The notes beneath the pieces are model-generated. The model was not told the origin of the DNA and searched no databases. It saw only the letters and a list, made by a program, of their open reading frames with translations. Shown here one piece after another: positions 5,919-42,680 of a stretch of DNA of 64,000 nt. The stretch spans positions 8,832,001 to 8,896,000 of the forward strand of contig JASGJH010000001.1 of NCBI GenBank assembly GCA_047601445.1. The letters are read 5' to 3'. The stretch is from Myxococcales bacterium (GTDB lineage Bacteria; Myxococcota_A; Polyangia; Polyangiales; DASUME01). The stretch's first letter is position 1. Every line of letters starts with the position of its first letter. Both the position numbers and the translations under genes were made by a program.

Positions 5919-7826
5919 TCAAGGAGCGCTGGGAGCAGGCGTGGGGGCGACTGGAGCAACCGGGGGCACAGGCGTGGGGGCGACTGGGGCAACCGGGGGC
6001 ACTGGTGCAGGCGCAGACGGAGGCTCGGGCGCTGCCGTGACCGGAGGCGCAGGCGGGGCGGGGGCTGCGGGCGCGGGCTCTGAGGGCGCGGGCTCAGCAG
6101 GCGTGGGCGTAGTCGCGGGCGGCGTCGATGGGTCGCTGGGCGTCGGCACGGCCGCGGGCGCCGCGTCCGTGGGTGCGGCTGCGGGAGTCTCGCTAGCCGG
6201 CGCTGGCGGCGCGGCGGGAGCAGCTGGAGCGGCAGCTTCGGGCGCAGCGGGCACCACCGGTGCGGGCTCAGCTTGCGCTGCGGGCTGGGGCAACGTGCTC
6301 ATCGCCGGCGCGGATGCGGGCGCGCGCGCTTGCATCTCATCGAACTTCCAACGCAAACCCAGACCGATGAAGTTCGCCTCCATCACGTACTTGCCGTTGC
6401 CGATGGCGGGACGATCGCCGGGCGCGTAGTGATGCGGGTCATTGTCCTGGGGCAACGGCTTGATGGCAGCGGGCAAGAGGACCGCGCTGTTGTTCACGTT
6501 GCGGTTCTGCATGAACATGTGCCCGTAGCTGGCATCGAGGAAGACGCGCGAGGAGATCTCCACGCTCGCACCAAGGCTCAGCAGAAACTTCTGCGTGTCC
6601 AGCGCGGCCGGGCTCAGGTTGCGGTCGGAGAACGCACTCGACTCGTACATCAAGCCGGCCAACACCTTGGCGCCGCGTCCACGCCACTTCTTCTTGACGT
6701 CGTAGCTGCCGCCCACCGCGATGGCCCAGGTGTCGCGCATGTTGCGCGCCAGCGAGACGCTCTGGGCTTTCACGTCGCCAATGCTCGGTACATCGTGGGC
6801 GACGACGTCCTTGGGCGTGACGCGGATGGACTGTTGCTGCGCCCAGTGTTCCCAGGTGCCAGCCACCTCCACGCGCGCTTCCTTGAGCGGCCTGAACTCG
6901 GCGCCGAGGCGCACGATGGTGGGCAGCACCACGGACATGTCCGCCTTGAGATCTTTGCTGCCCTTCGGGCCCTGTAGCTGGACGTTATCGAAGATCGCTT
7001 GGTCGGGCAGCCTGATGTCGAACTGGGCTTCTCCCGAGACCTTGGTGCGCAGCTGGACCGACGCGCCGAGGCGTACGTGATCGAGGTCGAGGTTGGCGCC
7101 GAGCACGGCGGTGGCCGTGTACACCGGCCCTAGCAGGAACTTGGTGCGACCTTCCCACTCCTTGGCTTCGGGCTGCTGGCAGAACGCGTAGTCACAGGCG
7201 CTGACCGCCACCTCGCCGCCGAGCTGCGCGGCTGTCAGGTAGAGCGCGCCGCCGAACGAGAGCCGGTCGGTGGCTTGATAGGCGGCGCCGAGCGCGAGCG
7301 AGCCGATGAAGGAGCCATTACCGTTGAGCACGGAGTAGCGCTGAGGAGCGCGATCTCCGTTGGGGAGCTGAGAGGGCCAGCTGGACGCATAGGCCGGGGG
7401 AATGATGAGGCCCACGCCGAAGCCGAGCTTCTTGAACCCGAGGTTGTCGCTGAAGGCGATGGTCGGGATGGGCACGGGCAACGAGTTGCCGTTCACGGTG
7501 GGCTCGTAGGTGCCGTTGTCGAGCTTGCGAGTGAACTCCGTCTGCACCATCGGGAGCACGAAATCCACGAGCAGCTGCCGCTTGCTCTCGACGAGTCCTG
7601 CGGGGTTGTACCAGAGCGCTTGCGGGTTGCGTGAACCCGCCACCGTGGCACCGCCTTGGGCGGCCGACTCGGCACCGCGCGGGAAAAGGTAGAGGCCGCC
7701 GGCATGGGCCTTTCGTGGAAGGCCGCCTAAAAGCAGAACGAGCGCTGCGAGGAGAACCACGCGCGCTCCGGTCGCGCGCCACTGCCATGCCAAGAAAGCC
7801 GTCACAAAACCTCGGGTGCCCGGCAC
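5919..7826 (-). CDS. FadL/OmpP1-family outer-membrane transporter with Pro/Ala-rich C-terminal tail (start uncertain)
   Basis: Signal peptide ending AHA|GG; hatch motif ALWYNPAGL; amphipathic beta strands; barrel ends GLGLRWKF, followed by a ~140-aa PA-rich tail. Confidence 0.8.
   Translation of the reverse strand: MPGTRGFVTAFLAWQWRATGARVVLLAALVLLLGGLPRKAHAGGLYLFPRGAESAAQGGATVAGSRNPQALWYNPAGLVESKRQLLVDFVLPMVQTEFTRKLDNGTYEPTVNGNSLPVPIPTIAFSDNLGFKKLGFGVGLIIPPAYASSWPSQLPNGDRAPQRYSVLNGNGSFIGSLALGAAYQATDRLSFGGALYLTAAQLGGEVAVSACDYAFCQQPEAKEWEGRTKFLLGPVYTATAVLGANLDLDHVRLGASVQLRTKVSGEAQFDIRLPDQAIFDNVQLQGPKGSKDLKADMSVVLPTIVRLGAEFRPLKEARVEVAGTWEHWAQQQSIRVTPKDVVAHDVPSIGDVKAQSVSLARNMRDTWAIAVGGSYDVKKKWRGRGAKVLAGLMYESSAFSDRNLSPAALDTQKFLLSLGASVEISSRVFLDASYGHMFMQNRNVNNSAVLLPAAIKPLPQDNDPHHYAPGDRPAIGNGKYVMEANFIGLGLRWKFDEMQARAPASAPAMSTLPQPAAQAEPAPVVPAAPEAAAPAAPAAPPAPASETPAAAPTDAAPAAVPTPSDPSTPPATTPTPAEPAPSEPAPAAPAPPAPPVTAAPEPPSAPAPVPPVAPVAPTPVPPVAPVAPTPAPSAP
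5936..6001. repeat. 33-bp tandem duplication (2 copies, 1 mismatch) within the PA-rich tail
   Basis: CAGGCGTGGGGGCGACTGGRGCAACCGGGGGCA at 5936-5968 and 5969-6001. Confidence 0.85.
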
Positions 7827-22965: not shown

Positions 22966-23937
22966 TCAAGGTTCACGCCACAGGGCGTCGTACAGCATCT
23001 CGGTGGTGTCGAGGATGCTAGGGCCCGGATCCTCGAGAAACTGCATGGGTAGCTCGATGATCTTGCCGGCGCCCTGGCAGGGCTTGAGGCCGGCCAGGCC
23101 CGCGTGTCGGCAGATCACGGCGCCCATATTGGTCTGCGTCACGATGACTTCGGGATCGAGACTCAGGATGCGCTCGTTGATCAGCTCGGGCCAGCCATCG
23201 AGCCCGGCCTCGGCCGCCGCGTCGCTCAGCCCCGCGTACTCCAGGATCTCGTGGTAGCTGGTGCGAGCGGCGCCGCCGTACATGCGATCGCCGTAGATGC
23301 TGATGTAGATGGCGCGCGGACGGGGCTTGCCGGCGCGGTCGGAGGCCACGCGTTCGAGGCGCTCGCGGAGGTGCCGCGCGTACTGCTCCGCCCGCTCGGG
23401 CGCGCCGATGAGATAGCCAATGGCACGGATGTTCGGCAGCAGCGTCTGCAGGCCTTGCATGTGGCCTAGATCGAACACAGGGATGCCGTGTTCACGCAGG
23501 TGTGCCACGTAGCCCGGGTCGACCAGGTTGTTGACCAGCAACAGATCCGGCTTGAGCTTGAGCACCGTCTCGACGGGCGCGCGCGATGCCAGCTGTTCCT
23601 TGCCGGCCAGGCGGTGCGCGATCACGGACTGCGTGGCGCCGTGGCTGGTGAACGCGACGATGCGCGTGGGCTCGCACAGGTCGGAGAGCACACGGTCGGC
23701 GATCATGGTCTGCGAGGCGATGCGCTCGTAGTGCTTGAGGGGCACGGCGACGCCGTGGGCATCGCGCAGCACCTGGCTGCCGTCGGGCAAGGTCTCGGGC
23801 TTGATGTGAGGGTCTAGCTCGATTGTGAGCTTCGCATCGGGCATACCGCGCCCGGTGCTCATCGACCCTCCGTAGATGGCGAGCGCGAGTGCGGCGGCGA
23901 AGCCAGCGCCATTGAGCAGGTCGAGTCCGCGCTTCAC
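22966..23937 (-). CDS. Cobalamin/iron-siderophore ABC substrate-binding protein (BtuF-like)
   Basis: ETVLKLKPDLLL, ERILSLDPEVIV and DPGP (Peripla_BP_2-like); in operon with ATPase and permease. Confidence 0.8.
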   Translation of the reverse strand: MKRGLDLLNGAGFAAALALAIYGGSMSTGRGMPDAKLTIELDPHIKPETLPDGSQVLRDAHGVAVPLKHYERIASQTMIADRVLSDLCEPTRIVAFTSHGATQSVIAHRLAGKEQLASRAPVETVLKLKPDLLLVNNLVDPGYVAHLREHGIPVFDLGHMQGLQTLLPNIRAIGYLIGAPERAEQYARHLRERLERVASDRAGKPRPRAIYISIYGDRMYGGAARTSYHEILEYAGLSDAAAEAGLDGWPELINERILSLDPEVIVTQTNMGAVICRHAGLAGLKPCQGAGKIIELPMQFLEDPGPSILDTTEMLYDALWREP

Positions 23938-24707
23938 GAGGACGCCTCCGGCAGACGAAAGCCGAGGCCACCGCCGAACACCATGTCCACGCCATACAGC
24001 GCCCGCACGCGTTCGGGCGTAATGATGTCTTGCGCGGGGCCGTGTGCGATGAGCTCGCCGCTCTTGATCAAGGCCACCTCATCCGCGTAGGTGAGCGCTT
24101 CGTCCAGGTGGTGCAATACCACCACCACGCAGCGACCCTGGCCTGCCAGCGCCCGCAACAGGACGCACAGGCGCAGCGCGTGCTCGACATCCAGCGACGC
24201 CGTGGGTTCGTCGAGCAGCAGCGTGCGCGCACCCGTGGCCAGCGCGCGCGCGATCATCACGCGCTTCTGCTCTCCGAAACTCAGCTCCGTGAATGGGCGC
24301 GCCGCCAGTCCCTGAGTGTCGGTCTCGGTCAGCGCTTCGTCGATGGCCGCCTCGTCTGCCGGGCCGAGCCGCGCGACGCTGCTGCGGTGTGCGTAGCGTC
24401 CCTGGGCCACCACGCTGCGCACGGGCATGGCCACGCGCAACAAGGAATTTTGAGGCACGAAGCTGACGAGCTTGGCGCGTTCGCGCGGCTCGATGGTGGC
24501 TGCGGGAACGCCGTGCAAGAGCACTTGTCCGCGACCGTCGAGGATGCCCGCGACGGCGCGCAGCAGGCTGCTCTTACCGGCTCCGTTGGGGCCGAGGATG
24601 GCGGTGACCTGGCCGGACTCGGCGCGCAACGAAACGCGCTTGAGCACCTCGCGCTGGCCGAGTTGCACGCTCAGCTCGCGCACCTCGAGCGCCGCGGGCT
24701 CAGACAT
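23934..24707 (-). CDS. ABC transporter ATP-binding protein (BtuD/FecE-like)
   Basis: GPNGAGKSS, LSFGEQKRV, LLLDEPTASLD. Confidence 0.92.
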   Translation of the reverse strand: MSEPAALEVRELSVQLGQREVLKRVSLRAESGQVTAILGPNGAGKSSLLRAVAGILDGRGQVLLHGVPAATIEPRERAKLVSFVPQNSLLRVAMPVRSVVAQGRYAHRSSVARLGPADEAAIDEALTETDTQGLAARPFTELSFGEQKRVMIARALATGARTLLLDEPTASLDVEHALRLCVLLRALAGQGRCVVVVLHHLDEALTYADEVALIKSGELIAHGPAQDIITPERVRALYGVDMVFGGGLGFRLPEASS

Positions 24708-25689
24708 AGATGCCTTCCTTGCGCGAACGCAGGAGCAGCCAGAGGAACAAGGGCGCCCCGAACAAGCCGGTCACCACGCCCAGTGGGATCTCGGTGCGCG
24801 AAGGAATCACACGGGTGAGCACGTCGCAGGCGAGCAAGAACACGCCGCCACCGAGGGCCGCTGCCGGCACCAGGATGCGATGGGACACGCCGACGAAGCG
24901 CCGCAGGGCGTGCGGTACGACCAGCCCCACGAAGCCCACGTTGCCTCCCACCGACACGGCGCCGGCCGTGAGCAACGCCGTCCACACGATGCACCAGCGA
25001 CGCGTGCGCGCCACATCGAGGCCGAGTACTTGGGCCTCGTCTTCGCCCGACAGCAGCAGATCGAGCGGCCGTGCCCAGAACATGGCGGCGGCGGTGCCGA
25101 TCGCTACGATCGGCGCGATCATGGCGGCTTGGCGCAGGCCCGTTCCAGAGACCGTGCCCAGCGCGAAGGCGATCACAGCGCGGCCCACCTCCCAGCTCTC
25201 TTGGGCCAAGCTGGTCACGAACGAGCCCAGGCTCAGGAACAAGTTCGAGAGCAGAAAGCCTGCCAGCAACAGGACCACGATGCTTGGCGTGGCACGCGCG
25301 ATGGCCAGTAGGATCAGGAGCGCCGCGAAGGCGCCCAGCAGGCAACCGAAGGGGAGGATCATCTCGGGCTCGAGCCCGTGCAGTTCACCGCGGATCAGGA
25401 GCGCCTGAAAGACGAGCAGGCAGACCTTGCCAGCGAAGGTCGCACCGGCCGAGGTGCCGAGGATGTCGGTGCTCGCCAGCGGGTTGCGAAAGAGGCCCTG
25501 AGCGATCACGCCCGAGACGGCGAGCGCGGCTCCGGCCAGGTAGGCCACGGCCCCACGGGCCAGGCGTAGGCGGAGGAGGGTATCGACCAGGCTTGGATCA
25601 TCGAGGGTGGTCGCCCCCGCAAACAAGCTCCCCACGAACAGGCAGGCGCTCGCCACGAGCAGCAGGACGAGCACCACGCTGGGACGCAT
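24700..25689 (-). CDS. ABC permease, FecCD/BtuC family
   Basis: QGLFRNPLAS..ILGTSAGA, GEDEAQVLGL, GFVGLVVPH, EIPLGVVTGLFGAPLFL. Confidence 0.93.
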   Translation of the reverse strand: MRPSVVLVLLLVASACLFVGSLFAGATTLDDPSLVDTLLRLRLARGAVAYLAGAALAVSGVIAQGLFRNPLASTDILGTSAGATFAGKVCLLVFQALLIRGELHGLEPEMILPFGCLLGAFAALLILLAIARATPSIVVLLLAGFLLSNLFLSLGSFVTSLAQESWEVGRAVIAFALGTVSGTGLRQAAMIAPIVAIGTAAAMFWARPLDLLLSGEDEAQVLGLDVARTRRWCIVWTALLTAGAVSVGGNVGFVGLVVPHALRRFVGVSHRILVPAAALGGGVFLLACDVLTRVIPSRTEIPLGVVTGLFGAPLFLWLLLRSRKEGIYV

Positions 25690-29834: not shown

Positions 29835-31994
29835 ATGGCAAGGGAGGACGCCGCGCGCCCCCGCGTGGAGTCCGTTCTGCGCCTGCCCGAGGCCACTCTA
29901 GCGATGCTGGGTGGTTCTTTGACGTGGTGTCGGACAACGTTGGAAGTGGCTGGTGGCAAGCGCCTCGCGCTGGCCATGTTCGCGCTCGCGTTGCTGCACA
30001 GCCGTGCCTCGCTTGCGCAGTCCAGCGAGGACGGTGCCGATCACTACGGCGCCAGCGCCCGCGTCGCTCGTCCGGTAGCCGCCCGCAACGAAGAAGACGC
30101 GACCGCCGCTGCGACCACCGTGGATCTCGAGAAACGTCCCATGGCGCTCGAGACCTTCCGCGACGTCTTCCCCGAGGTCCCCGGGGCCATGGCGCTGGCC
30201 TCGGGCGGCTACGGCTCGTTCCAGAGTGTGTCGCTCCGTGGCACCGATCAGGCGCAGACCGTCTGGTTGCTCGGTGACGTGCCGCTCAACGGACCTGACA
30301 GCGGCGCCTTCGACATGTCGCTCTTGCCGCTGCCGCAGTTCTCGCGGCTCGAGGTGTACCGCAGCGGAGCCCCCGTGTGGTTCGGCCAGGGCAGCATCGG
30401 TGGCGTGATCCGCGTGGTGCCCCGCGAGGCCGAAGGCACGGGTGTCAGCGCTCAGGCGGGGGCGGGTTCCTTCGGCCGCTACGAGGCGCGCGCGAACAGC
30501 TACGTGTCGAGCTTCGGTCGGCGGCCGATCTCACTCTACAGTGGGATCCAGGTCACCAGCGCCAAGAACGACTTTCTCTACTACGACGACAACAGCACGC
30601 GCTTCGTCAAGGACGACGACGTCGAGCGCCGCCTCAAGAACGCCCAACTGCTCGACGGCACCGGTCTCTTGCATCTGCGCACGAAGCTCGCAGCGGGTCA
30701 CATGGACCTGATCGTCTACGGCCTCGGTCGCACCGGCGGTGTTCCCGGCGCGGGCGGGCGCGACAGCAACGCGACCAAGACGCGCCGTGAGCTACGCCGA
30801 GGGCTGCTGTCGCTGGCATACACCCAGGAGAGCAAGCGCCACGCGCGACGTCACTACCGCCTGCAGGCGCTGGGGAGTGCGCAGGGCGAGCAGCGCGAGC
30901 TCGACGATCCTTTCGCCGAGCTTTCGCTAGGTGGTCCGCGCGCGCTCGAGCAGAACCTGGCGCGCTTGACCGGTCGCTTGGCGGGCTCGTTCGACCTCAC
31001 GCGTGTCATCGAGGCCACGCTGATCGGGAACTACACCTTCGATCGCTTTCGGGACGACGACGCGATCCAGGCATCACCGCTTGGACCCTCCACGCGCCAC
31101 ACGCAGGCTGCGGTCGGCGAGCTGCGCCTGCACGGCCGCGTGCTGGGCTTGCGCGCCGAGCTGCGTGGCTCCGTGCGCGCCGAGTTCAGTCAGACGGCGC
31201 TCTCGTTGATCCGCGTCAAGACACGTACCCACGAAGAGTCCACGCTGCGCAACCAGACCTATCGCCTGGCAGGCTTGATCGAACCCTGGGCTGGCCTCAC
31301 CGTGCGCAGCTCGGTCGGCACGGGCCGGCGCCTACCTTCGATGCTCGAGCTGTTCGGTGACGGCGTGAACATCGTGCCGAACCCGGACCTGTTGCCCGAG
31401 AGCGGGACCTACGCCGACGCCGGCCTGGTGTACAGCGGCACCCTCGGCAAGATGTGCATGGTGCTCGAGGCCAACGGCTTCTGGAATCGGGTCGACGACA
31501 AGATCGTCCAGGTCTCCAACAGCTTCAAGACGATGGCTACCAACGCGGGCAATGCAGAAGCAATCGGCAGCGAGCTCGGAGCGGAGTTGTCATACCTGCG
31601 CAACCTGCGGCTCGTGACCGCCGCGACCTTCATGGACACCAGCAACAAGCTGGACCGCCCCGGCGCCGTGCCGCGCCAGCTGCCGCGCCAACCCAAGGCT
31701 CGCGCTTACGCTCGGCTCGAGGCGTCCACCTTCTTTTCGAGTGCACTCGAGCGCCTGACTGTGTTCGGCACCGTGGAGTACGTGTCCACTTTCTATTACA
31801 GCATCGCCAACGACGTGCCGCGCTCTCCGCTCACCAAGGTCGGGCTCGGGGCCGCGCTCGGCTTCCTCGAAGACCGCGTCGAACTTCAGGTGCGCGTGTC
31901 CGATCTGCTCGATGCACGTGGCCAGGATTATCAGCGCCTGCCGTTGCCGGGGCGCTTTATTGGATTTCTACTCAGTGTGAAAGAGGAGTCGTGA
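29835..31994 (+). CDS. btuB: TonB-dependent receptor, BtuB-like (start uncertain)
   Basis: Plug motifs VPG...SLRG...DVPLN...LEVYRSG...IGGVI; barrel NPDLLPESG; PLPGR near the C-terminus; under a B12 riboswitch. Confidence 0.8.
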   Translation: MAREDAARPRVESVLRLPEATLAMLGGSLTWCRTTLEVAGGKRLALAMFALALLHSRASLAQSSEDGADHYGASARVARPVAARNEEDATAAATTVDLEKRPMALETFRDVFPEVPGAMALASGGYGSFQSVSLRGTDQAQTVWLLGDVPLNGPDSGAFDMSLLPLPQFSRLEVYRSGAPVWFGQGSIGGVIRVVPREAEGTGVSAQAGAGSFGRYEARANSYVSSFGRRPISLYSGIQVTSAKNDFLYYDDNSTRFVKDDDVERRLKNAQLLDGTGLLHLRTKLAAGHMDLIVYGLGRTGGVPGAGGRDSNATKTRRELRRGLLSLAYTQESKRHARRHYRLQALGSAQGEQRELDDPFAELSLGGPRALEQNLARLTGRLAGSFDLTRVIEATLIGNYTFDRFRDDDAIQASPLGPSTRHTQAAVGELRLHGRVLGLRAELRGSVRAEFSQTALSLIRVKTRTHEESTLRNQTYRLAGLIEPWAGLTVRSSVGTGRRLPSMLELFGDGVNIVPNPDLLPESGTYADAGLVYSGTLGKMCMVLEANGFWNRVDDKIVQVSNSFKTMATNAGNAEAIGSELGAELSYLRNLRLVTAATFMDTSNKLDRPGAVPRQLPRQPKARAYARLEASTFFSSALERLTVFGTVEYVSTFYYSIANDVPRSPLTKVGLGAALGFLEDRVELQVRVSDLLDARGQDYQRLPLPGRFIGFLLSVKEES

Positions 31995-33265
31995 TGAACA
32001 AGTCGCTCATTCTATGGTCCAGTGCTGCCCTGCTCTCGCTCGCGGCCTGCAACGATGAGGCCCAAGAGGGCATCCCGCTGCTCAGCGGCAAGCCGGCGTT
32101 CGCAGTGCAGCTCTCGAACTTCAACGACTCCGCCGGCGTCGCCCTGATCGATGGCGAAGGCAAGCTGCTCGAGGCGAAGTATCTCTCGTCGGGCAGCGCC
32201 CTGCCTGGCTTGAACGCCGCGATCCCGAGCGACATCGCGTTGCCCTCCACGCCCTGCGGCGAGGGCGACACCCTGACGTTGCTCGCGCGCTTGATGGGCG
32301 ACTTCGTGCTGCAGGTGAACCTCGACGACAGCTCCGTGATCGACCAGTTCCGTACCCAGACGTCCACTGGCGACACGGCCTACTCCAGCAACCCTCAGGA
32401 TCTCTTGTGCCTTGGCGACGGCCGCGCCGTCGTCAGCCGCCTCGGACACAACGAGGGCGCGGCGCCCACCGACCTCGACCGCGGCGACGACCTCGTGGTG
32501 GTGGACCTCGCGAAGGGCCAGCTCCTCTCGCGCATCGACCTCGGCGCCTACCAGGGCCAGGTCACCGCGACCGACTACGACACCAACGCCGAAGTCGTCG
32601 AGACCACCTTCGCCAGCCCCGGCAGCATCGTCGCGGTCGGACCCAAGCACGCCATCGTCGGTCTCTCGCGCCTCAGCGCCAACTTCAACGCCAACACCGT
32701 GGGCCAGGTGGCGCTGCTCGATCTCGACGCGCTGACCACCAAGCCGTTCGCGATCGACGGCCTCGCGAACTGCGGCTCCGTGTATCGCGTGCCGGGTCGC
32801 GACGACGCCGCAATCGTGCAGTGCGCCGGCGCCTACTACGGTAACCCCGACAACTCCGGCCTGGCCCTGGTCTCGGTGACCAATGGCGAAGCCAAGGTCG
32901 AGAACGTGTTCAAGGTGGCCCTCGAAGGCGTGTCGTTGAGCAGCTCGCCCACGCCCCTCGGCGGCACCCGCGTGATCGCCACCACCGCCAACTTCGCCAA
33001 GAAGCCCGACGGCACGCGTACCGCCGACAAGGCCTACGTGGTCGACCTCAAGGACGGCAGCTACCAGGAGCTCTTCACCGCTTCCACCGCGGGCGACATC
33101 GGTTCTGGATCCGTTCGCGCCGATACGGGCCTCGTGCTGGTGCCCGATCTCAGCGCCGGTATCCGCGTGTTCGAGCTCAAGGATGACCAGCTGACGGCGA
33201 AGGACTCGCTGCCCATCGATCCGGTCGTGCCGGCCCGCAACATCCGCCCGCTGTACGCGTTCTGA
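31994..33265 (+). CDS. Lipoprotein, probable beta-propeller, co-regulated with the B12 receptor
   Basis: Lipobox LAAC; TGATG coupling to the receptor gene; repeated beta-blade-like segments (NPQD, LVVVDL, VALLDL, YVVDL). Confidence 0.7.
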   Translation: MNKSLILWSSAALLSLAACNDEAQEGIPLLSGKPAFAVQLSNFNDSAGVALIDGEGKLLEAKYLSSGSALPGLNAAIPSDIALPSTPCGEGDTLTLLARLMGDFVLQVNLDDSSVIDQFRTQTSTGDTAYSSNPQDLLCLGDGRAVVSRLGHNEGAAPTDLDRGDDLVVVDLAKGQLLSRIDLGAYQGQVTATDYDTNAEVVETTFASPGSIVAVGPKHAIVGLSRLSANFNANTVGQVALLDLDALTTKPFAIDGLANCGSVYRVPGRDDAAIVQCAGAYYGNPDNSGLALVSVTNGEAKVENVFKVALEGVSLSSSPTPLGGTRVIATTANFAKKPDGTRTADKAYVVDLKDGSYQELFTASTAGDIGSGSVRADTGLVLVPDLSAGIRVFELKDDQLTAKDSLPIDPVVPARNIRPLYAF

Positions 33266-33300: not shown

Positions 33301-34785
33301 TCAGAACGCGAAGTCGAGATAGCCGCCGAGCGCGAGGATGCGCAGGTTGTAGGTACCGTTGCCGAGGTCGTAGTCCGAGCTCGCCACGCGCCGCTCGAGG
33401 ATGGTCTGTAGCTGTCCGTCGAGCAGAATGCGCACGTTGTCCGTGAGACGTTGCGATAGGCCGAGCGCCGCGTGCACACGCGTGCCGTCGGGCGACGCCA
33501 TGTCGATGGTGCTATCGGGACTGGCTCCGGTCTCGATGCCGAGCATCCCCCAGACCGCCAGCTCCTCCGAGACCAGGTAGCGCAATCGTGTACGCACGCC
33601 GTAGGTGTCGCGCCAGGCGCGCGCCAGCTTGAGGCCAGTCGACGAGGGCAAACCGAGCATGGGCTGCGCCAGCGAGGGCGACTTGATGCGAACGTCGAAG
33701 TTGTCCACCGAGGACCAGCCCGTGTAGCTGCCTTCGAGGCTCACGTTGACCTGCCGCTCATCGCCCATCTGCTCGCCGAACCCGTAGCGAATGCCGTAGC
33801 GCACCGTGCGCGGCAGCGTGAAGGCAAGCGACGCTTTGCCCTTCACCAGAGCCGGATACTTGAGGCCCTGGCTCTGCAGATCCTGGGTGAAGAATGGATC
33901 GTCCATGTCGAGCGTGAAGTCGCCCCGGAACGTCATCTTGGTGGTGTGCTCGTAGCTCGCCGCCAGCCACAAATCCTTGAGTGGCTGAGCGGTGATACCC
34001 GCGCTGAACGTGAAGCCGTTCGCCACGCCGTTCTTGAAGTGGAAGGGCCGCGCCATGGTGTCGAGCTCGCGTACACCGGGATCGGCGTTGGGACCGAAGC
34101 TGTTGCTCTGGCCGATGGGCGGGCGGGCGAGCGCGTCACCCAGGTCGCTCAAGGTCGCCAGGTCCTGGGTCTTGGCCAGGTCCGCATATCCCATCACGTA
34201 GGAGACGCCGAGACCGATGGAGAGCTCTTCGATAGGCTGATAAGCGATGGTCGGCGTGAACTGGCCTGCCGCGATGAAGGCGTCGGTGAGCTGGAAGCGC
34301 TGCGGACCGTTCTTGGGCAAGTGCAGCATTGCCGCGTAGGGTACGTAGATGCCCAGGCCCACGACCAGCGGCAGATCCCCGAGCTGGGTCGATCCGAAGA
34401 TGCTCGGCACGAGTCCCACGGGTCGATCGCTCACCTCGCGCTCTTTGCCGCGCTTCTTGGGATCCACCAGGCTCGGGTCGATGGGCAGGGCGAAGTCGAG
34501 GGAGTCGCTGTACTGGTAGGTTGCGAAGCGCTCGCGCTGATAGCTCAGTTTGCCGATCAGGATGTTGCCACCGCCGATCACGCGGGTGCCCTTCACGAAG
34601 CCGATGCCCGCCGGGTTCTGTGCGAGTACCGAGGGATCCGTGGTGGTCGTGACGCCGGTGCTGCTCGGCCCCACGCTCGGCGCGGCAAAGCCCGAGGCTT
34701 GGACCTTTTGGAGCGGGCCCGTGAGTGTGAACGCACCCACGGAGAGGGCCGCCAAAATGCTCTTGAGTGAACGCAAACGAACCAC
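33301..34785 (-). CDS. FadL/OmpP1-family outer-membrane transporter
   Basis: Signal peptide ..VQA|SG; hatch motif QNPAGI; GLGIYVPY; terminal beta-signal GYLDFAF. Confidence 0.85.
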   Translation of the reverse strand: MVRLRSLKSILAALSVGAFTLTGPLQKVQASGFAAPSVGPSSTGVTTTTDPSVLAQNPAGIGFVKGTRVIGGGNILIGKLSYQRERFATYQYSDSLDFALPIDPSLVDPKKRGKEREVSDRPVGLVPSIFGSTQLGDLPLVVGLGIYVPYAAMLHLPKNGPQRFQLTDAFIAAGQFTPTIAYQPIEELSIGLGVSYVMGYADLAKTQDLATLSDLGDALARPPIGQSNSFGPNADPGVRELDTMARPFHFKNGVANGFTFSAGITAQPLKDLWLAASYEHTTKMTFRGDFTLDMDDPFFTQDLQSQGLKYPALVKGKASLAFTLPRTVRYGIRYGFGEQMGDERQVNVSLEGSYTGWSSVDNFDVRIKSPSLAQPMLGLPSSTGLKLARAWRDTYGVRTRLRYLVSEELAVWGMLGIETGASPDSTIDMASPDGTRVHAALGLSQRLTDNVRILLDGQLQTILERRVASSDYDLGNGTYNLRILALGGYLDFAF

Positions 34786-34788
34786 CCT

Positions 34789-36531
34789 TCAGCGCACGCG
34801 TGTGATGGTGAGATGCCTTCGATTGGGGCTCGGCTTGCCACCGGCCGTCAGCTTGAACACGGCGCCGGCATCGTCGCTCATGTAGAGCTCCGGATGGTCG
34901 TCGAGCCGCACTTTCTCGTGGTCGGTGTCGCCGTCGAGCGGCAACAGCGAGCTCACCTTGTTGGTGAGCGCGGCGTCGCTGAAGAAGCCGATCTGCGTGT
35001 AGTTGTAGGGGCGCACGGGTTGCCCCTGGTCGTCCACGGCGATGTCGTCCTGATTCACGAAGAACAACCAATCCCCCTGGAGGCTCGCCAGATTGCTGGG
35101 GCTGCTACGGTAGTAGTAGAAGTCCGCCGCGCCCTCGGTGGTGTCGATGATCTCCTCGGCGATATCGAGCAGCGAGTACGGGTTCTGCTGCAGGTTTTGT
35201 CGCATGAGCTGCTCGAGCGTGGCGGTGTCGGTGCCCACCGGGATGTTCTCGAGCTTGAACTCGACGTTGGCAGTGCCTTCGGGCAGGTTGCCGTCGTGCA
35301 AACGCACCTGAGCGATCTCGAGCAGCATGTCCCAGACGTACGAGGACGGCGGCGGCGAACCGAGACCACCTTGCACGGAGATGGTCTGCCATCCCTTCTC
35401 GACCACGGCTTTGAAGATGGGATCGTTCTTGCCGGGCGACGTGTAGCTGACCTCGCTAGAAAGGTCCGAGAAGGCGCGCTGCGCGGCACCGATGAGTACG
35501 CGCTCCAGGGTCCAGGGCGGGAGCTCCCAGGCAGGGGAAGAGCCGATGCCGGTGGGGACGGGCGTGCGACCGCCCTCTACGAAGCCGTCCGACTCCACGA
35601 TGCGGAACGAGAGCTGGTCGATCTTCGGGATGCCCTCCACCAGGCCCTCCACGCGCAACCAGTTGGGATCGTCGAAGTCGAACAGTGCCTTGATCTGACT
35701 GCGCACCGAGTTGACGCTCGTGTCGGAGCCGTTGGTCAGGTCGATGCCCTTGTAGGGCAAGGCGTTCGCGTTGGCGCGCACCGTGATCGCAAAATCGTCG
35801 GTGAGTACGCTGGCACGGGTCTGACCCGCCACGAAGCCCGGATGGGTGACGCCGTTCTTTTCATACGGTCCGAAGCGCTCCCCGAGGCTCACGAAGTCGC
35901 TGGCGACGTCACCCAAGGTGACCGGGATGGCGCCCTGGGCGACCGGGTACATGCCGTCGGGATGCTCCTCGGTGATGGGGCCGGCACGCATGCGCGTGTT
36001 CGGGTGCGTCATGATCACTTGGTCGAGCACCGTCTGAGCCACGATGCGGTCGGACAGGAAGGGATCTTCCACGTTGATATGGAACAGATCCGCCAACACC
36101 TGTTCGGGGGCCACGCCGAGTAGCGGCGCCAGATCGATCAAGCGTTCGATGTCGGTTCCCGTGAGCACCGCGGTGTCGGGTGTCATCGTGAGCAAGGCCT
36201 GCATATTCCGCTCCGCTTGGCCGAGCGTGTTGGGATCGAGGGCGCGGATCGCAGCCAGCGAGTTGTCGAGCAGCTGCGGTGAGCTAGCGCCGCTCGAGAG
36301 ATCCAGATCGAGCAGCCACAGGCGCTCCTGGGCGTCCTTGGGTAGCGCCAAGATGTCGGCGCGGGTCAGGCGCTTCTCGAAGTTGCTCACGTCGAAGCGC
36401 AAGAAGCGCAGCTCCACCTCGCGCGTCTCGCTGACGCCGATCTTGGTAGGCTCGGGGCTCAGCACTGGATCGGGACCTGAGCAAGCACTCAGACCCAACA
36501 CGAACCAGCTCACGGTCAGGGCGCGTCTCAC
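34789..36531 (-). CDS. Lipoprotein of unknown function (paralog 3, core domain only)
   Basis: Lipobox LSAC; shares MTPDTA, HPGF, WDMLLEIAQVRLHD, GFFSDAALT and HEKV motifs with the two upstream genes. Confidence 0.75.
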   Translation of the reverse strand: MRRALTVSWFVLGLSACSGPDPVLSPEPTKIGVSETREVELRFLRFDVSNFEKRLTRADILALPKDAQERLWLLDLDLSSGASSPQLLDNSLAAIRALDPNTLGQAERNMQALLTMTPDTAVLTGTDIERLIDLAPLLGVAPEQVLADLFHINVEDPFLSDRIVAQTVLDQVIMTHPNTRMRAGPITEEHPDGMYPVAQGAIPVTLGDVASDFVSLGERFGPYEKNGVTHPGFVAGQTRASVLTDDFAITVRANANALPYKGIDLTNGSDTSVNSVRSQIKALFDFDDPNWLRVEGLVEGIPKIDQLSFRIVESDGFVEGGRTPVPTGIGSSPAWELPPWTLERVLIGAAQRAFSDLSSEVSYTSPGKNDPIFKAVVEKGWQTISVQGGLGSPPPSSYVWDMLLEIAQVRLHDGNLPEGTANVEFKLENIPVGTDTATLEQLMRQNLQQNPYSLLDIAEEIIDTTEGAADFYYYRSSPSNLASLQGDWLFFVNQDDIAVDDQGQPVRPYNYTQIGFFSDAALTNKVSSLLPLDGDTDHEKVRLDDHPELYMSDDAGAVFKLTAGGKPSPNRRHLTITRVR

Positions 36532-39164
36532 TGCAACACTCCCGCGGGACTCACCTGCACACCGACGCGGTTGCCGTCGCGCTGCACGATCTCAATCTGG
36601 AACGGTTCACCCTTTTCGTCCGCCGCGTAGTACTTGGCCCCCACGGTGGCGGGCACCTTCTCGTGCGTGGAGTCGTTTGCGCCGCCCAGCGGAGCGAGCG
36701 TGGAGACCTTCTGCGTGAGCGCGGCATCGCCGAAGAAGCCCGGCGTGGGGTAGGCGTAGGCGCCTTCGCTGTCGCCCGCGGCGCGGAACAGGAGCACACC
36801 GTCTGCGCCATCCACCGGCTCGTAGAAGAAGTCTGCGCTCGACGCGGCCAAGCCGAGATCGCCCACGAACAGCTCGGAGAGCTTGGTCTCCTGCTCGGCC
36901 AATCGTGGGCGAAGCTTCTCCACGAGCTGGTCGGCCGTGAGGCCGATCGACAGGTCGTTGAGCGTGAAGGCCATGTCGGCCATGCCCTCGGCCACACCAT
37001 TATCGTGCAGGCGCACCTGGGCGACCTCCATCAGCAGATCCCACGCGTAGATATCGGGCGGCACGTTGCCGATGTTGCCCGCAGTCTCCACGTGCACCCA
37101 ACCGTGGTCCCAGCCGATCACCGCAGCGTCCTTAATGGAGCCCGCGTCGTAGTGGAGCTCGTGCTTGTAGCTGGTGTTGGCATAGGCATCGAAGAACATG
37201 CGGTAGCCGATTTCCACCGTGGCGTGCTCGAAGAACCAGGGACTCACGGCGTAGCCCTGGCTATTGCCGCGATAGAACCCTGGATGCGCCGCGTCCGGAC
37301 TCGCGTACCGGTTGGTGCCGCCTTTGAGCATGGCGCCTGGCGCTTCCTTGAGGCGGATGCGCAGGTTGACCGTGGGCTCGTCCTTCAGGCCCACCACGGA
37401 GAACTGGTCCTCGAGCACGTTGAAGTCCAGCACGCGATCGCCGTTGAGCAGGAAGAAGAAGTCCTTGCTCGAGCGACTCAAGTCGACCGCATCGTACTGC
37501 ACCAGGTTCGAGTGCACGGGCAGCGAGAGCAAGAAGCCCGACTCGAGCACCTCCGAGTAGCTCTGGCCGTCCAAGAAGCCCGGGTGCGCACCAGCGGGGC
37601 CGAAGCGCGGGGCCAGCGTGGTCAGGTTCTGCAGCACGTCGTACAGGCTGATGTCGATGACGTAGGCGCCGTTCGCGTCCTGCTGGATGTTCGGATGGGT
37701 GCCGATCAACTTCTCGGTCAGCACGTCTGCCGCGACGTCCGGGTCGACGATGAAATCCGTGATACCCCTGCCGAGCAGCTGCGAGAGGATGCGCGGCGAG
37801 GGCAGACCGACCGCATTGGCCACGTTGAGGAGATCCTCGATGGACGTGCCGCTCAAGTCCGCCGTGTCGGGCGTCATGTTCAGGATGCGCTGCAAGTTCT
37901 TCTCGGCGCTGCCCCAAGCGGAGGTGTCCACGCCGAAGCGCTCGGGCTCGCGAATGCGCTCCAGCGCCTGTTTGATCGACGGCTTGAGGTCCACCTGCAC
38001 CACCGACAGGCTCTTCTGGTCCGCTTCGTCGAGCAGGTCCTCCAGGTTGAAGCGATCCATCTCGATCTGGGTCTCGCCGGCGTTGCGGCGCGGCTCACCC
38101 AGCCACAGCATGCGCTGGCGAGTCAGCGAGAGATCCACACGGTTCTCGTTGCCCGCTCGATCGCGCGCTACCACCTCGAAGGCGTTGATGCCCTGGGCCA
38201 GGAGCAAGTTGGCCTTCCACGGAGAGAGCGCACCCAGCTCGAGCAGCGCGCCATCGGCCGCCTGGATCTCGACCTGTTCGATGCCACTCGGATCACTGGC
38301 CGTGCCCTCGACCTCCAAAGAAGCGGCGGTCGTCTCGCGCGCACTGGAGGTGACTTCGAGCAGGGGCGGGGTGCTGTCCTGGGTTACCACGAACTGCGCC
38401 ATCGTGCTGCGCTGGTCGGGGTCGCGCGCCTCCACCTCGATGGTGTTCTCCACGTTCTCGGCCAGCGTGAGCGGCAGCGCGAAGGCTCCGTTGGCATCGA
38501 GTTGGGGCGACATGCGAGGGCCGTCCGCGAGGCCCAGAAACACCTCGGCGCCCGCGATCTTGCCGCTGCTGGTGGAGACTTGTCCCGTGACGCAGACCTG
38601 CTTCACCGAGGTGACCGCATCGCGCAGCTCGCTGGTCTCGCTACAGGGATTGCCGCGGTCCACCGCCGCCTGGGAGGGCCTGCGCACGCTGATCCTCAGG
38701 CCCGGCGCCTCACCGCGGTACTCGAGGGCGTAGACGAGCCGGCGCACCCGGGTCTGGTCCTCGGTCTCGACGCGGATCAAGAGGCGGTTGGTGCCATGCG
38801 TGAGCGGGACCTTGAGCCGGAAACGCTGGTCGGGTCCGGGTTCGCCTTCCGAGGCTGCGGGCCGCATGTCCACCGCTTGATCCACGCCGGTGGCGTCCTT
38901 CTCGAGGCGTCCGATGAACACACGCAGCGGCAACCGCGGCTCGGCTTCGGAGTAGGCCGCCACCACGAACTCCGGCACCGCGCCCTCGAAGGTCTCGGAC
39001 AGCTTCGGATGCTCCACCCAGGCATAGAGCCCACCTTCTTCGGTGGGGGTAGAGAGCGAAGTCGGATCACCGTAGTCCCGCGGTGTGAACTCCGAGGCAC
39101 AACCTTGAACTCCCGACACCAGATACGCGCCGAGGAGCAGACGCCACCAAGCCGAACCCATCAC
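36528..39164 (-). CDS. Lipoprotein of unknown function (paralog 2), Ig-like repeats plus core domain
   Basis: Lipobox VQGC; Ig-like DSTPPLLEV...GTASD...ARDRAGN; shared core domain. Confidence 0.75.
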   Translation of the reverse strand: MMGSAWWRLLLGAYLVSGVQGCASEFTPRDYGDPTSLSTPTEEGGLYAWVEHPKLSETFEGAVPEFVVAAYSEAEPRLPLRVFIGRLEKDATGVDQAVDMRPAASEGEPGPDQRFRLKVPLTHGTNRLLIRVETEDQTRVRRLVYALEYRGEAPGLRISVRRPSQAAVDRGNPCSETSELRDAVTSVKQVCVTGQVSTSSGKIAGAEVFLGLADGPRMSPQLDANGAFALPLTLAENVENTIEVEARDPDQRSTMAQFVVTQDSTPPLLEVTSSARETTAASLEVEGTASDPSGIEQVEIQAADGALLELGALSPWKANLLLAQGINAFEVVARDRAGNENRVDLSLTRQRMLWLGEPRRNAGETQIEMDRFNLEDLLDEADQKSLSVVQVDLKPSIKQALERIREPERFGVDTSAWGSAEKNLQRILNMTPDTADLSGTSIEDLLNVANAVGLPSPRILSQLLGRGITDFIVDPDVAADVLTEKLIGTHPNIQQDANGAYVIDISLYDVLQNLTTLAPRFGPAGAHPGFLDGQSYSEVLESGFLLSLPVHSNLVQYDAVDLSRSSKDFFFLLNGDRVLDFNVLEDQFSVVGLKDEPTVNLRIRLKEAPGAMLKGGTNRYASPDAAHPGFYRGNSQGYAVSPWFFEHATVEIGYRMFFDAYANTSYKHELHYDAGSIKDAAVIGWDHGWVHVETAGNIGNVPPDIYAWDLLMEVAQVRLHDNGVAEGMADMAFTLNDLSIGLTADQLVEKLRPRLAEQETKLSELFVGDLGLAASSADFFYEPVDGADGVLLFRAAGDSEGAYAYPTPGFFGDAALTQKVSTLAPLGGANDSTHEKVPATVGAKYYAADEKGEPFQIEIVQRDGNRVGVQVSPAGVLQ

Positions 39165-41924
39165 TGCACCTTCTTGGACGCGTAGACGCGGATCTCGGTG
39201 GGATCGGCCTCGGCTACGAAGCGCAATCGGTACACCTGGTTGAGATCGTCACGCATGTAGACCGTGGTTTCGCCGGTGGCCAGGCTGAGCTTCTCGTGCG
39301 CGCTGTCGCCGGAGGTCCCGGCGGCGGTGTTGCTGAGCTTGGTGCCCAGGGTTTCGTCGGCGAAGAAGCCGGGCTTCGTGTAGTTGTAGACGCCGCTCGG
39401 CAGCGGATCACCGGCCGCGGCGAAGAACAAGTACGGCTTACTGTCCGCGCCGCGCTTGTAGTAGAAGTCCACCGCGCCGTTGTTCTTCTTGTAGTCGCCG
39501 AGCAGCTTGTCGCTGAGCACGTTGCGCTGCTTCTGCAGCTCGTCGGCGGTGGCGTCGCGGATTTGCGCGGCGGTGAGGCCGACCGGGATGTTGTAGAGCG
39601 TGAAGGCCACGTCGGCAGCACCTTCGGCGATGGTGGTGTTGCCGATATGGTGCAGCGCGTTCTGACCGATACCGAGGATCAGCTCCCAGACGTACTGAGG
39701 GTCGGGCGGATTGCCCAGGCCGGCAACGGAGTAGAACTTGGTCCAGCCCGCTGGATCGGTGCCTTGTCCCACGCTGATGTCAGCCGCCCTGTCGATAAGG
39801 AGCCACGAGTACTTGTTGTAGGTCCGCAGGTTCGCGTACTCGACGAGGGCGGCGCCCGTCAGCAGGTACTCGAGCTGCCACTTGGGCGTGCTCCACACGT
39901 AGGGGAGCGGCTTGGGCTGGCTCGGAGAGTTGTTGGTCATGCACGCGTTGCCCTCGCAGGACGGCACGAGCGCGTCGTTCTCGAGGACCTTCATCTTGAG
40001 GTTGACGGTGGGCGCGGCGGTGAGGCCCTGGATGTCGAACTTGCTGGCGTTCTTGAAGTCGAACTCGAGCACGTCATCGCGGGTCGCACCCGTGGTGTCC
40101 ACCACCAGCGCGATGTAGTCCTTGCCCGGTCGCGTGCCGTCGCCCGACAGGTCGATGCCGTCGAACCACTTGAGGTTGGAGGTCGCTACCAGGGTCATCT
40201 TGAAGTTGGGACCGAACACCACCGAGGTGGTCTGGAAGCTCGGGTCCAGGACGCCGGGGTGCCCACCGGAAGGGCCCAAGAGCGCTGGCAATGTCTTTAG
40301 ATCGTTCATCGCATCGTAGAGCGTGATCGGGATCTTGGCGCCGGGGAGGATCGCAGGATGACTCTGCATCCAGTACTGCTGCAGGGACGAGACCACCGAG
40401 TTGGTGGTGATGATCTCGCGCGTCTTGGGGATCGCAAGCACATCGGCCAGGATCTGGTTGAAGCCGCCGCCGAGGCCCAGCAGGTTCGCGAGCCCTTCGA
40501 GCTCGCCCACGCTGCTGCCCGCCACCATCGCGTTGGCAGGGGTCATGGTCAACAGACGCACGAAGCTGTACTCAGGCGTGTTCTTCCAGTTCGAGCCGTA
40601 GCTCTGGCCCAGAGAAGTGACGGTGCAGTCGTGTTGAGGATCCTTGTTGTCCTGCGTCCACTTCGTGCCACAGCTGGCCTTGATGTTGTTCACCGAGGTT
40701 TGAAGCAAGGTCGTCGTGTCGAGCTGCAATACGCGGATGTCCTTCTGCACGTCGGCCGCGATCACCTCGTTGACGCCCTCCTTGTCGAGGTCGAAGTGCA
40801 GCGTGGGCGGCGCGGTGTCTTCGCGCAGGCGCAGCGGGATGGCGACCTCGTCCGTCCAGGCCGGCTGGAAGGTGTTGAGTACGTGCACGTCGACGCCCGT
40901 GGCGAGGCCGCTCAGGTCGATGGCGCGCACCTCGATTCTGAAGTGGGCCCGGCTTGATCGGTAGGTCCACGTGCCAGGTTTGAAAGCCGTCGTCCGTCTC
41001 GGCGACCACGTACTCGCTCCAGGTGAGCTCGCCCGTGGCGTCCTTGGGGATGCCCACGCGCGCCTTCACCTCGCGCAAGCCCACCGCGTCCGATGCCGTG
41101 CCGGTCACCGTGACGACCGCGGTCGCGATCGTGCTGGCTTCGGCCGGAGCGCTCACGCTCAGCATGGGCGGATCGCGATCGACCTCCGCACGACCGGTCA
41201 GAGTGATGCTGGCCTGGCCCTCGTGTCCGGCGGCGTCGCGCGCGATGAAGGTCAGGACGTTGCTCTCACCAGGCAACAGCGGCACCAGACGCGACCAGCT
41301 GGCGAAGAAGTTGTCCGTCTCGACGAAGCGCTCCTTGAGCAGCTCTCCGTTGCGCAGCACGTCCATCGAGATCACGGCGCGATCGTCCGTCGCCGTACCG
41401 CTCACCAGCACCAGCGCGTGCAAGGGCGCGCTGCCGTCGGGCGGAGCCAACACTTGGACCACGGGCGTGGCATCGTCGGCGCTGTTGCCGGGACCAATCA
41501 AAGCGATGCGATCAGGGTTGCTCTTCTGCTGCGCGACGTCGCGTGCTTCGGCCTCCACGAAGAACATGCCGCCCGGGACCTGACTCTCGATCCACCAGTG
41601 CCGGAAGTTGTCGTCAGTGTTCGCGAGGAGTGCCACGTTGGGGCCCACCTTCACGAACACGCTCGCCACGCCGAGGTCGTCGCTGCTGGTGCCCTCGATG
41701 CGCAGCGGGCTGGTCACGGAGGCACCGGTAGTCGGCGTGGTGATGTGGACCGTCGGCAATGCGTCCTGCGGGCCGGTTGCCGCATCGCTGTGCGGGCCGG
41801 CATCGGAAATCCCGATTCCACCGTCTGGCCGTAGTACCGGCCCTTCCAATTCGACGGCTGCGCACCCGCCAGCGAGGACAAGGGCGGCAAGAGCGGGTGA
41901 AAAGGGGGGGCGCGAGCGGGTCAC
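39161..41924 (-). CDS. Lipoprotein of unknown function (paralog 1), 3 Ig-like repeats plus core domain; interrupted by a 1-nt insertion near 40937-40950
   Basis: Lipobox AGGC; three Ig-like repeats (GTSSDD, GTATDD, GTASDA). Removing one base joins ...LPIKPG to IEVRAIDLSG... and gives ~920 aa. Confidence 0.7.
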
Positions 41925-42049
41925 GTGACGCTCCGGTGGCTAAGGACAAGCAACGGAAGGTTTCGGGCCCACTATATCCAAGCTCTTGCGCCGGCGGAAA
42001 GCACGGCTGCGTGTGAACAAGGCGCGCACAAGTAATGGTCGGAGGGCGT

Positions 42050-42137
42050 TTCGTGAGCGTAGCGAACCTCGTGGTGGGGTGGGTCCCCGCGCGGCTTTGC
42101 CGCGCGGGGCGGGGAGGGCGCGTGCCCTCCCCGTGAA
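42050..42137 (+). repeat. Dispersed structured intergenic repeat, copy 2
   Basis: Homologous to 22251-22342; terminal hairpin variant GGGGAGGGC-GCGT-GCCCTCCCC. Confidence 0.9.
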
Positions 42138-42293
42138 GTCAAAGCGGGCCGAGCCCTGCTTTCGCTATCGAGCCTGCGGCGGAAAGGTGCTATCCCCTGC
42201 GCCAGCACCTTCGGGCCCAGGGCCCTGGGTCAGGTCGCAGGGGTCGCAAGCACAGAGCTCAGGGCCCATCTGAATCGGAAGAAGGAGACGGCA

Positions 42294-42680
42294 ATGGCGA
42301 AGTTTCTGTCGGACGAGTGGTTTGCCAAAGTGCAGCAGATCACCGAAGAGATGGGCGATATCGAGATCCCCGGACCCCTCAAGGATTTGACCCTCAATCT
42401 CACCGTCACGCTGGCCGACGGTACCGAGAAGAAGGTCAACATGAGCGGCGGTCAGTTCGGCCAGGGCCACAAGGCCGGGGCCCCTGTAACCGTGCTTCTA
42501 CCTGCCGATATCGCGAAGAAGATCTTTGTGGATGCCGATCAGCAGGCCGGTATGCAGGCCTTCATGAGCGGTCAGATGCGCGTCGAGGGCGACGTGACGA
42601 AGCTCATGGTCCTGCAGACCGTGCAGCCCAGCGACGACCTCAAGGACCTGATGGCGGACATCCGCGATCAGACCGACTGA
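42294..42680 (+). CDS. SCP2 sterol/lipid-carrier domain protein
   Basis: FLSDEW start and MQAFMSGQMRVEGDVTKLM signature; AAGGAG RBS. Confidence 0.85.
   Translation: MAKFLSDEWFAKVQQITEEMGDIEIPGPLKDLTLNLTVTLADGTEKKVNMSGGQFGQGHKAGAPVTVLLPADIAKKIFVDADQQAGMQAFMSGQMRVEGDVTKLMVLQTVQPSDDLKDLMADIRDQTD

Follow-up and report, generated by a model that had tools for sequence, protein, structure and literature searches.

What do three paralogous lipoproteins do beside a FadL-family outer-membrane barrel, and do the four proteins belong together? The question is raised by a 64,000-nucleotide stretch, here called the window, of a Myxococcales bacterium (assembly GCA_047601445.1, contig JASGJH010000001.1, positions 8,832,001 to 8,896,000), in which lipoprotein genes A, B and C and a barrel gene lie on the minus strand and a gene for an SCP2-like protein diverges from them. 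An initial annotation, made from the sequence alone, proposed a heteromeric complex that captures or processes lipids and feeds the FadL channel, with SCP2 as a component. We find that the lipoproteins and the barrel are one conserved unit, with weak support from modeling for a direct contact, and that SCP2 is probably no part of it.

A lipoprotein family tied to a dedicated barrel

The initial annotation had suggested examining the neighborhood of homologs of the domain that A, B and C share. In 70 of the 79 genomic loci (merged by shared sequence from 109), a FadL-type barrel gene lies next to the lipoprotein genes in the same orientation, 44 times downstream and 26 times upstream, and the link persists through this changed gene order. 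Eight of the nine other loci end at a contig edge, and the last has its barrel 7.6 kb away. Among 68 metagenomic loci, which were not de-duplicated, the barrel is adjacent in 52 and the remaining 16 are truncated. These linkage counts include related genomes and are not independent. In 401 genomes sampled across the phylum, with 2–3 candidates scored per genome, 31 carry the shared domain and 30 match a profile of the barrel, all of them within the 31; the lone domain-bearing genome lacking a match is fragmented, and its cluster begins at a contig edge. Since barrels next to the cluster were the source of the profile, the informative part is that it found no member of the barrel subfamily in the 370 sampled genomes that lack the shared domain. 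Two genomes, G106 and G116, have two copies of the dedicated barrel each, and G106 holds both orders (barrel-A-C and A-B-C-barrel) on different contigs.

The divergent gene does encode an SCP2-like protein, with a PF02036 match exactly at the cut-off (21.3 bits, E 3.5e-4, residues 50–110), and its position is not conserved. A tblastn search with the window protein places SCP2 by the cluster at 3 of the 109 genomic loci and at none of the 68 metagenomic ones, counts to be read knowing that a single query may miss distant SCP2 genes and that the flank scan (E 1e-8) is too strict for them. Within the genus, SCP2 is present in 9 of 9 genomes and stands beside the cluster in two of the eight that carry it. 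We reject it as a component; it is probably a chance neighbor. An obligatory link to sterol synthesis was also rejected: a sterol cyclase occurs in 7 of the 31 domain genomes and in 39 of the 370 others at a self-set line of 600 bits, and only one genome passes the curated cut-off. The genome studied here has an oxidosqualene-cyclase-like gene (C1:4800353-4802227, 710 bits, below the curated cut-off), and the organism may make sterols. The flanking genes (110 scanned) are heterogeneous, and the flank scan found no recurring gene for BamA, type IX secretion (T9SS), TonB, heme or an inner-membrane partner. Since SCP2 fails the linkage test, the flanks are heterogeneous and the sterol cyclase co-occurs in few genomes, the conserved unit is the lipoproteins plus the barrel, and nothing more.

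The shared domain is colinear in A, B and C and carries the motifs first noted in it, with 29–31% identity between paralogs (blastp E 1e-40 to 1e-56) and no further copy elsewhere in the 9.5-Mb genome. In agreement with the initial annotation, it matches no characterized family in Pfam, NCBIfam or PDB sequences (Pfam scans of homologs covered selected members of a 99-sequence alignment). Searched against 1.8 billion proteins, a profile of 99 diverse copies recovers 330 clusters (50% identity), of which the best 150 were inspected. A search of 185,579 species, with the best 80 of 103 matches retained, gave 75 loci in Polyangiales, Nannocystis, Enhygromyxa, Chondromyces, Bradymonadia, other Myxococcota and a few entries with vague submitter labels; cultured hosts include Nannocystis spp. 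and Chondromyces apiculatus. Occurrence is patchy among myxobacteria and extends across several Myxococcota classes. Literature searches, mostly of openly readable articles in their main texts without supplements, did not turn up any description of the family. The domain thus defines a real protein family that is undescribed. No longer or fused form was found at E 0.001, which is weak evidence; long forms do exist, as P0268, a distant homolog of 1,302 residues, has the domain interrupted by large Cys- and Asp-rich insertions. Its genomic context was looked for and none was found, and a search of phages gave nothing usable.

The paralogs are ancient and subfunctionalised, forming two or three non-interchangeable subunits. 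A tree of 202 copies (FastTree, midpoint root) resolves A-, B- and C-type clades, each crossing lineages. The 79 loci comprise A-C in 35, A-B-C in 18, A-C-C in 7 and fragments in the remainder, and B-types are confined to A-B-C loci. The A- and C-types are the core, which some lineages supplement with a B-type or with another C-type. N-terminal immunoglobulin (Ig)-like regions differ among the paralogs of the window as first described (three Big_7 stretches, one clear stretch and none in A, B and C); such stalks occur in A-B-C loci, and the scanned members of A-C and A-C-C loci have none. A lipobox heuristic finds the Cys in 91 of 102 C-type, 67 of 75 A-type and 21 of 25 B-type sequences. The residue at +2 is Lys in none and Asp in four A-types, which points to an outer-membrane location given the +2 pattern described for lipoproteins (PMC3222651).

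The barrel and a putative capture lid

The last gene was correctly read as a FadL-family barrel: PF03349 spans it with 101 bits against a cut-off of 29.7 (E 6e-29). Its mature N-terminus, with the signal cleavage site judged by conservation and no predictor, aligns in register with residue 1 of Escherichia coli FadL. An N-terminal plug of about 40 residues follows, and the N and P of its hatch motif, which we take to be NPA, are invariant in 50 of 50 sequences. The long loops are also in register with FadL, and the S3 kink position has a near-invariant Pro, a conserved Tyr and an Ala for the usual Gly, a replacement described as tolerated in CymD (PMC7728783). Conservation is higher in the predicted outer loops than in the strands, in line with a fixed partner or a substrate site outside the cell.

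Complex prediction for the barrel plus C scored 0.48 against 0.00 for the best control, with at least 92% of contacts shared between runs and a partner pLDDT (predicted local distance difference test) of at least 80. The mark used for such predictions is reached by 116 of 157 solved pairs, compared with 2 of 215 mismatches. Of those that reach it at 0.60 or under, where the score of 0.48 falls, just 18 are solved pairs, alongside both mismatches, and the prediction is rated weak. Combined with the prior from gene linkage, it modestly raises the odds that the C subunit contacts the barrel directly.

The reading we favor, with a little less than an even chance of being right, is a self-contained outer-membrane module in which one dedicated FadL-type channel is served by two or three specialized lipoproteins forming a lid that captures hydrophobic ligands. 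The short-tethered C subunit might dock on the barrel, probably at the cell surface on the conserved outer loops, while A and B, in loci that have Ig-like stalks, would project beyond it. The lipoproteins' middle domain would bind a hydrophobic ligand (lipid or similar, from prey or the environment) and pass it to the barrel, which, like FadL, would let it out laterally into the outer membrane. The whole would act as a capture lid of several subunits on a lipid channel that needs no energy input. A transport role within myxobacteria has indirect support by analogy, because a different FadL, MXAN_7040 of Myxococcus xanthus, is reported to be needed for fatty-acid uptake, which its loss blocks (PMC4048283), and to be co-transcribed with a lipoprotein (bioRxiv 10.64898/2026.08.28.747804). 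Most accounts treat FadL channels as pores that act alone, and the partnered examples VolA and BamG-BamH are described as single-partner systems; here an ancient module joins two or three paralogous subunits, in a fixed set, to a barrel subfamily not seen without them in the sampled genomes. It may offer a handle on the uptake of prey or environmental lipids by myxobacteria, for which a transcriptome study argues that an unknown route must exist during predation (PMC9548883).

The barrel features also bear on a different proposal, that the barrel is a PorV- or BamG-like scaffold or anchor that carries no substrate and displays a surface complex, for instance in adhesion or cell contact. We consider this unlikely, even if the strict 1:1 linkage and the conserved loops fit a protein–protein role. 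Ig-like stalks are typical of adhesins, although A-C loci, half of all, lack them. BamG is described as binding a surface lipoprotein, in BamG-BamH, through its outer loops, and PorV as shuttling proteins (PMC12578637, PMC12611786), both being FadL-family barrels of Bacteroidota, and the NCBIfam BamG profile NF053685 matches the barrel at E 0.0047, far below its cut-off (16 bits against 250). The same accounts have the lipoprotein-binding loops of BamG as non-conserved, whereas those of the barrel are conserved, and describe BamG as a non-transporting protein whose N-terminal extension passes through the lateral opening and which binds BamA. In alignment with E. coli FadL, the barrel lacks this extension of about 10–12 residues, and neither BamA nor T9SS genes recur in the flanks.

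The shared domain and what it may bind

In the gene C product, a HmuY-like domain with the all-beta fold of HmuY is built from about residues 33-46, 260-274 and 467-580, and a middle alpha/beta domain occupies residues 58-468. All 99 sequences of the alignment have H176, D208 and H230, and E313, E343, W400, Q408, H412 and E418 of the middle domain are near-invariant, with covariation between 343 and 418, 408 and 418, and 412 and 418. Residues of this kind could belong to surface hydrolases of a new class, dependent on His/Asp or on metal, that free fatty acids or other lipids for FadL in the manner of VolA, which is described as a surface lysophospholipase co-expressed with FadL (PMC3656444). 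That too seems an improbable account. Pfam, NCBIfam, PDB-sequence and fold searches returned no hydrolase match, and the "acetyltransferase" label that NCBI gives some homologs was set aside, having no profile support in the Pfam and NCBIfam scans. The invariant His residues lie in His-Pro turns, which fits a structural role. Because all three paralog types retain these residues and the 99-sequence consensus has no G-x-S-x-G, the invariant His, Asp and Glu are more likely structural, or metal- or head-group-binding, than a classical lipase site. For the Lipocone superfamily, described as a four-helix cone with His, Glu and Asp on helices 2–4 (PMC12419801), there is no match in Pfam and no such fold among the fold matches listed. 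The capture lid and the VolA-like alternative share the logic of feeding lipids to the channel, and taken together they are rather probable.

Foldseek, PDB sequence searches and a second alignment of the middle domain gave nothing usable, which is no proof of a new fold; the ESM Atlas was of no more use (its model is poor, pLDDT 0.33), and an internal repeat between the two helical insertions was not detected. The middle domain is a good target for a new fold. What may be long antiparallel amphipathic strands, wrapped by a terminal helix and with both chain ends at one head, would recall TULIP proteins as described for BPI/Takeout/SMP, ERMES and Bdellovibrio TipA (PMC5507252, PMC6791001, bioRxiv 10.1101/2025.09.09.675085), and ERMES also pairs several paralogous subunits with a barrel. 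A doubtful but far-reaching form of the capture lid would be a heteromeric, lipid-anchored extraction machine, in which two or three TULIP-related, tube-like paralogs with joined HmuY-like heads and Ig stalks pull lipids of prey or foreign membranes into their dedicated FadL. If true, this would be an equivalent of ERMES on the bacterial surface and the first utilisome-like assembly to serve a channel that needs no energy input, built on a domain of new or heavily remodeled fold. The same likeness to ERMES, with its TULIP tubes and barrel, could instead describe a conduit that faces the periplasm, unloads the barrel or exports lipid, and spans the periplasm with its Ig stalks. This is quite improbable, as the conserved barrel loops are predicted to be extracellular, no inner-membrane partner recurs among the neighbors, and one of the three strand pairings needed for the TULIP meander (b3-b4) was not detected. 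Separately, weak BPI/LBP (PF01273) matches occur in open frames of about 1,000–1,500 residues in 21 of 151 Myxococcota genomes, often in several copies (L221-L250), and are candidate bacterial TULIP proteins.

That the HmuY-like domain serves the uptake of heme or metal is very improbable: the top six fold matches of C are HmuY-family or HmuY-like Bacteroidota proteins, hhalign with myxobacterial PF14064 domains gives a weak collinear match (P 0.0015, probability 17%) and H538 is kept in 82–89% of sequences, but only 121 of 182 HmuY residues align, the global profile alignment is gapped at the aromatic hairpin of HmuY-like proteins, PF14064 has no match in the genome, TonB and heme genes do not recur in the flanks, and FadL barrels are not known to be TonB-energized. 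Some Myxococcota proteins have two or three tandem HmuY-like domains (L172-L178, L192).

On the features compared, the module is not a member of the VolA, BamG or HmuY families. In VolA-FadL of Vibrio cholerae, a lipoprotein gene is likewise co-encoded with a FadL barrel and the surface lipoprotein is proposed to feed the channel; VolA is a single enzyme, whereas here two or three paralogs have an unrelated domain. HmuY-HmuR and SusCD-type lid-plus-barrel systems also tie a lipoprotein, with a HmuY-like beta domain in the case of HmuY, to an outer-membrane transporter. The barrel here is FadL-type and not TonB-dependent, and the HmuY-like domain is trimmed and carries an insertion of about 410 residues of unmatched fold. 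In M. xanthus, MXAN_7039 is a lipoprotein gene directly upstream of FadL (PMC3222651, PMC4048283), set apart by its description only, as one lipoprotein rather than a paralog set. The system is a new multi-subunit variant of the lipoprotein–FadL theme, with a putative substrate and a proposed mechanism. Its novel elements are the strictness with which lipoproteins and barrel co-occur, the division into A, B and C subtypes, the HmuY-like head and the barrel features of the transport type; the weak support for a complex and the rejection of SCP2 as a component are likewise new.

Gene models and surroundings

Table 1. Features of the cluster and of its surroundings in the window.
Feature	Position	Strand	Description
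Gene A	39161..41924	-	Lipoprotein, Cys21; three Ig-like repeats and shared domain; A-type
Gene A, split	41924-40572 and 40930-39161	-	Open reading frames of 450 aa (out-of-frame tail) and 589 aa
Frameshift in gene A	40936..40937	-	Single base; AA here, A in relatives
Gene B	36528..39164	-	878-aa lipoprotein, Cys22; N-terminal region of ~340 aa with at least one Ig-like domain, then shared domain
Gene C	34789..36531	-	580-aa lipoprotein, Cys17; shared domain only
FadL-family barrel gene	33301..34785	-	494 aa, PF03349; dedicated outer-membrane barrel
SCP2-like gene	42294..42680	+	Divergent; incidental neighbor, no conserved part
FecCD-type ABC transporter and binding protein	22966-25689	-	Converging on the cluster
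TonB-dependent receptor, then lipoprotein	29835-33265	+	Converging on the cluster; lipoprotein without assignment
Second FadL-like barrel	5919-7826	-	Long Pro/Ala-rich tail C-terminal to the barrel

Four coupled minus-strand genes had been described at first. The coupling of B, C and the barrel, by two GTGA overlaps and a 3-nt gap, and the lengths of B and C stand; gene A is no single open reading frame, and the ~920 residues given for it are a read-through length. The lipobox-like Cys residues were read off the sequence.

Gene A has one extra A relative to its relatives L064 and L065, and the third-codon-position (GC3) signal changes frame near 40940. The two halves are conserved to a similar degree relative to L064 (70% and 68%), all seven same-genus loci examined read through this point without interruption, and none of 27 well-matched genes (259 queries) is split in the assembly, where frameshifts are uncommon. 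With equally conserved halves, uninterrupted relatives and no other split genes, the frameshift is either an assembly error of a rare kind or an inactivation that happened very recently. Elsewhere, three loci (L104:7060-12301, L087:3281-5081, L134:7827-10582) have one paralog broken into several open reading frames, by error or decay.

No sigma-70 promoter match was found, and terminators are not in excess. The genes converging on the cluster from 22966 and 29835 look like cobalamin or iron uptake; their synteny is partial and confined to the two closest relatives. The genome has a large expansion of about 14 FadL-like genes (16 PF03349 matches). Four other barrels directly follow predicted lipoproteins of 1,214–1,289 residues that have no Pfam match and no relation to the shared domain (C1 near 4298407, 7286231, 8618360 and 1415414; L157, L158, L161 and L162), and these look like a second, expanded lipoprotein–FadL module, possibly of the MXAN_7039-7040 type.

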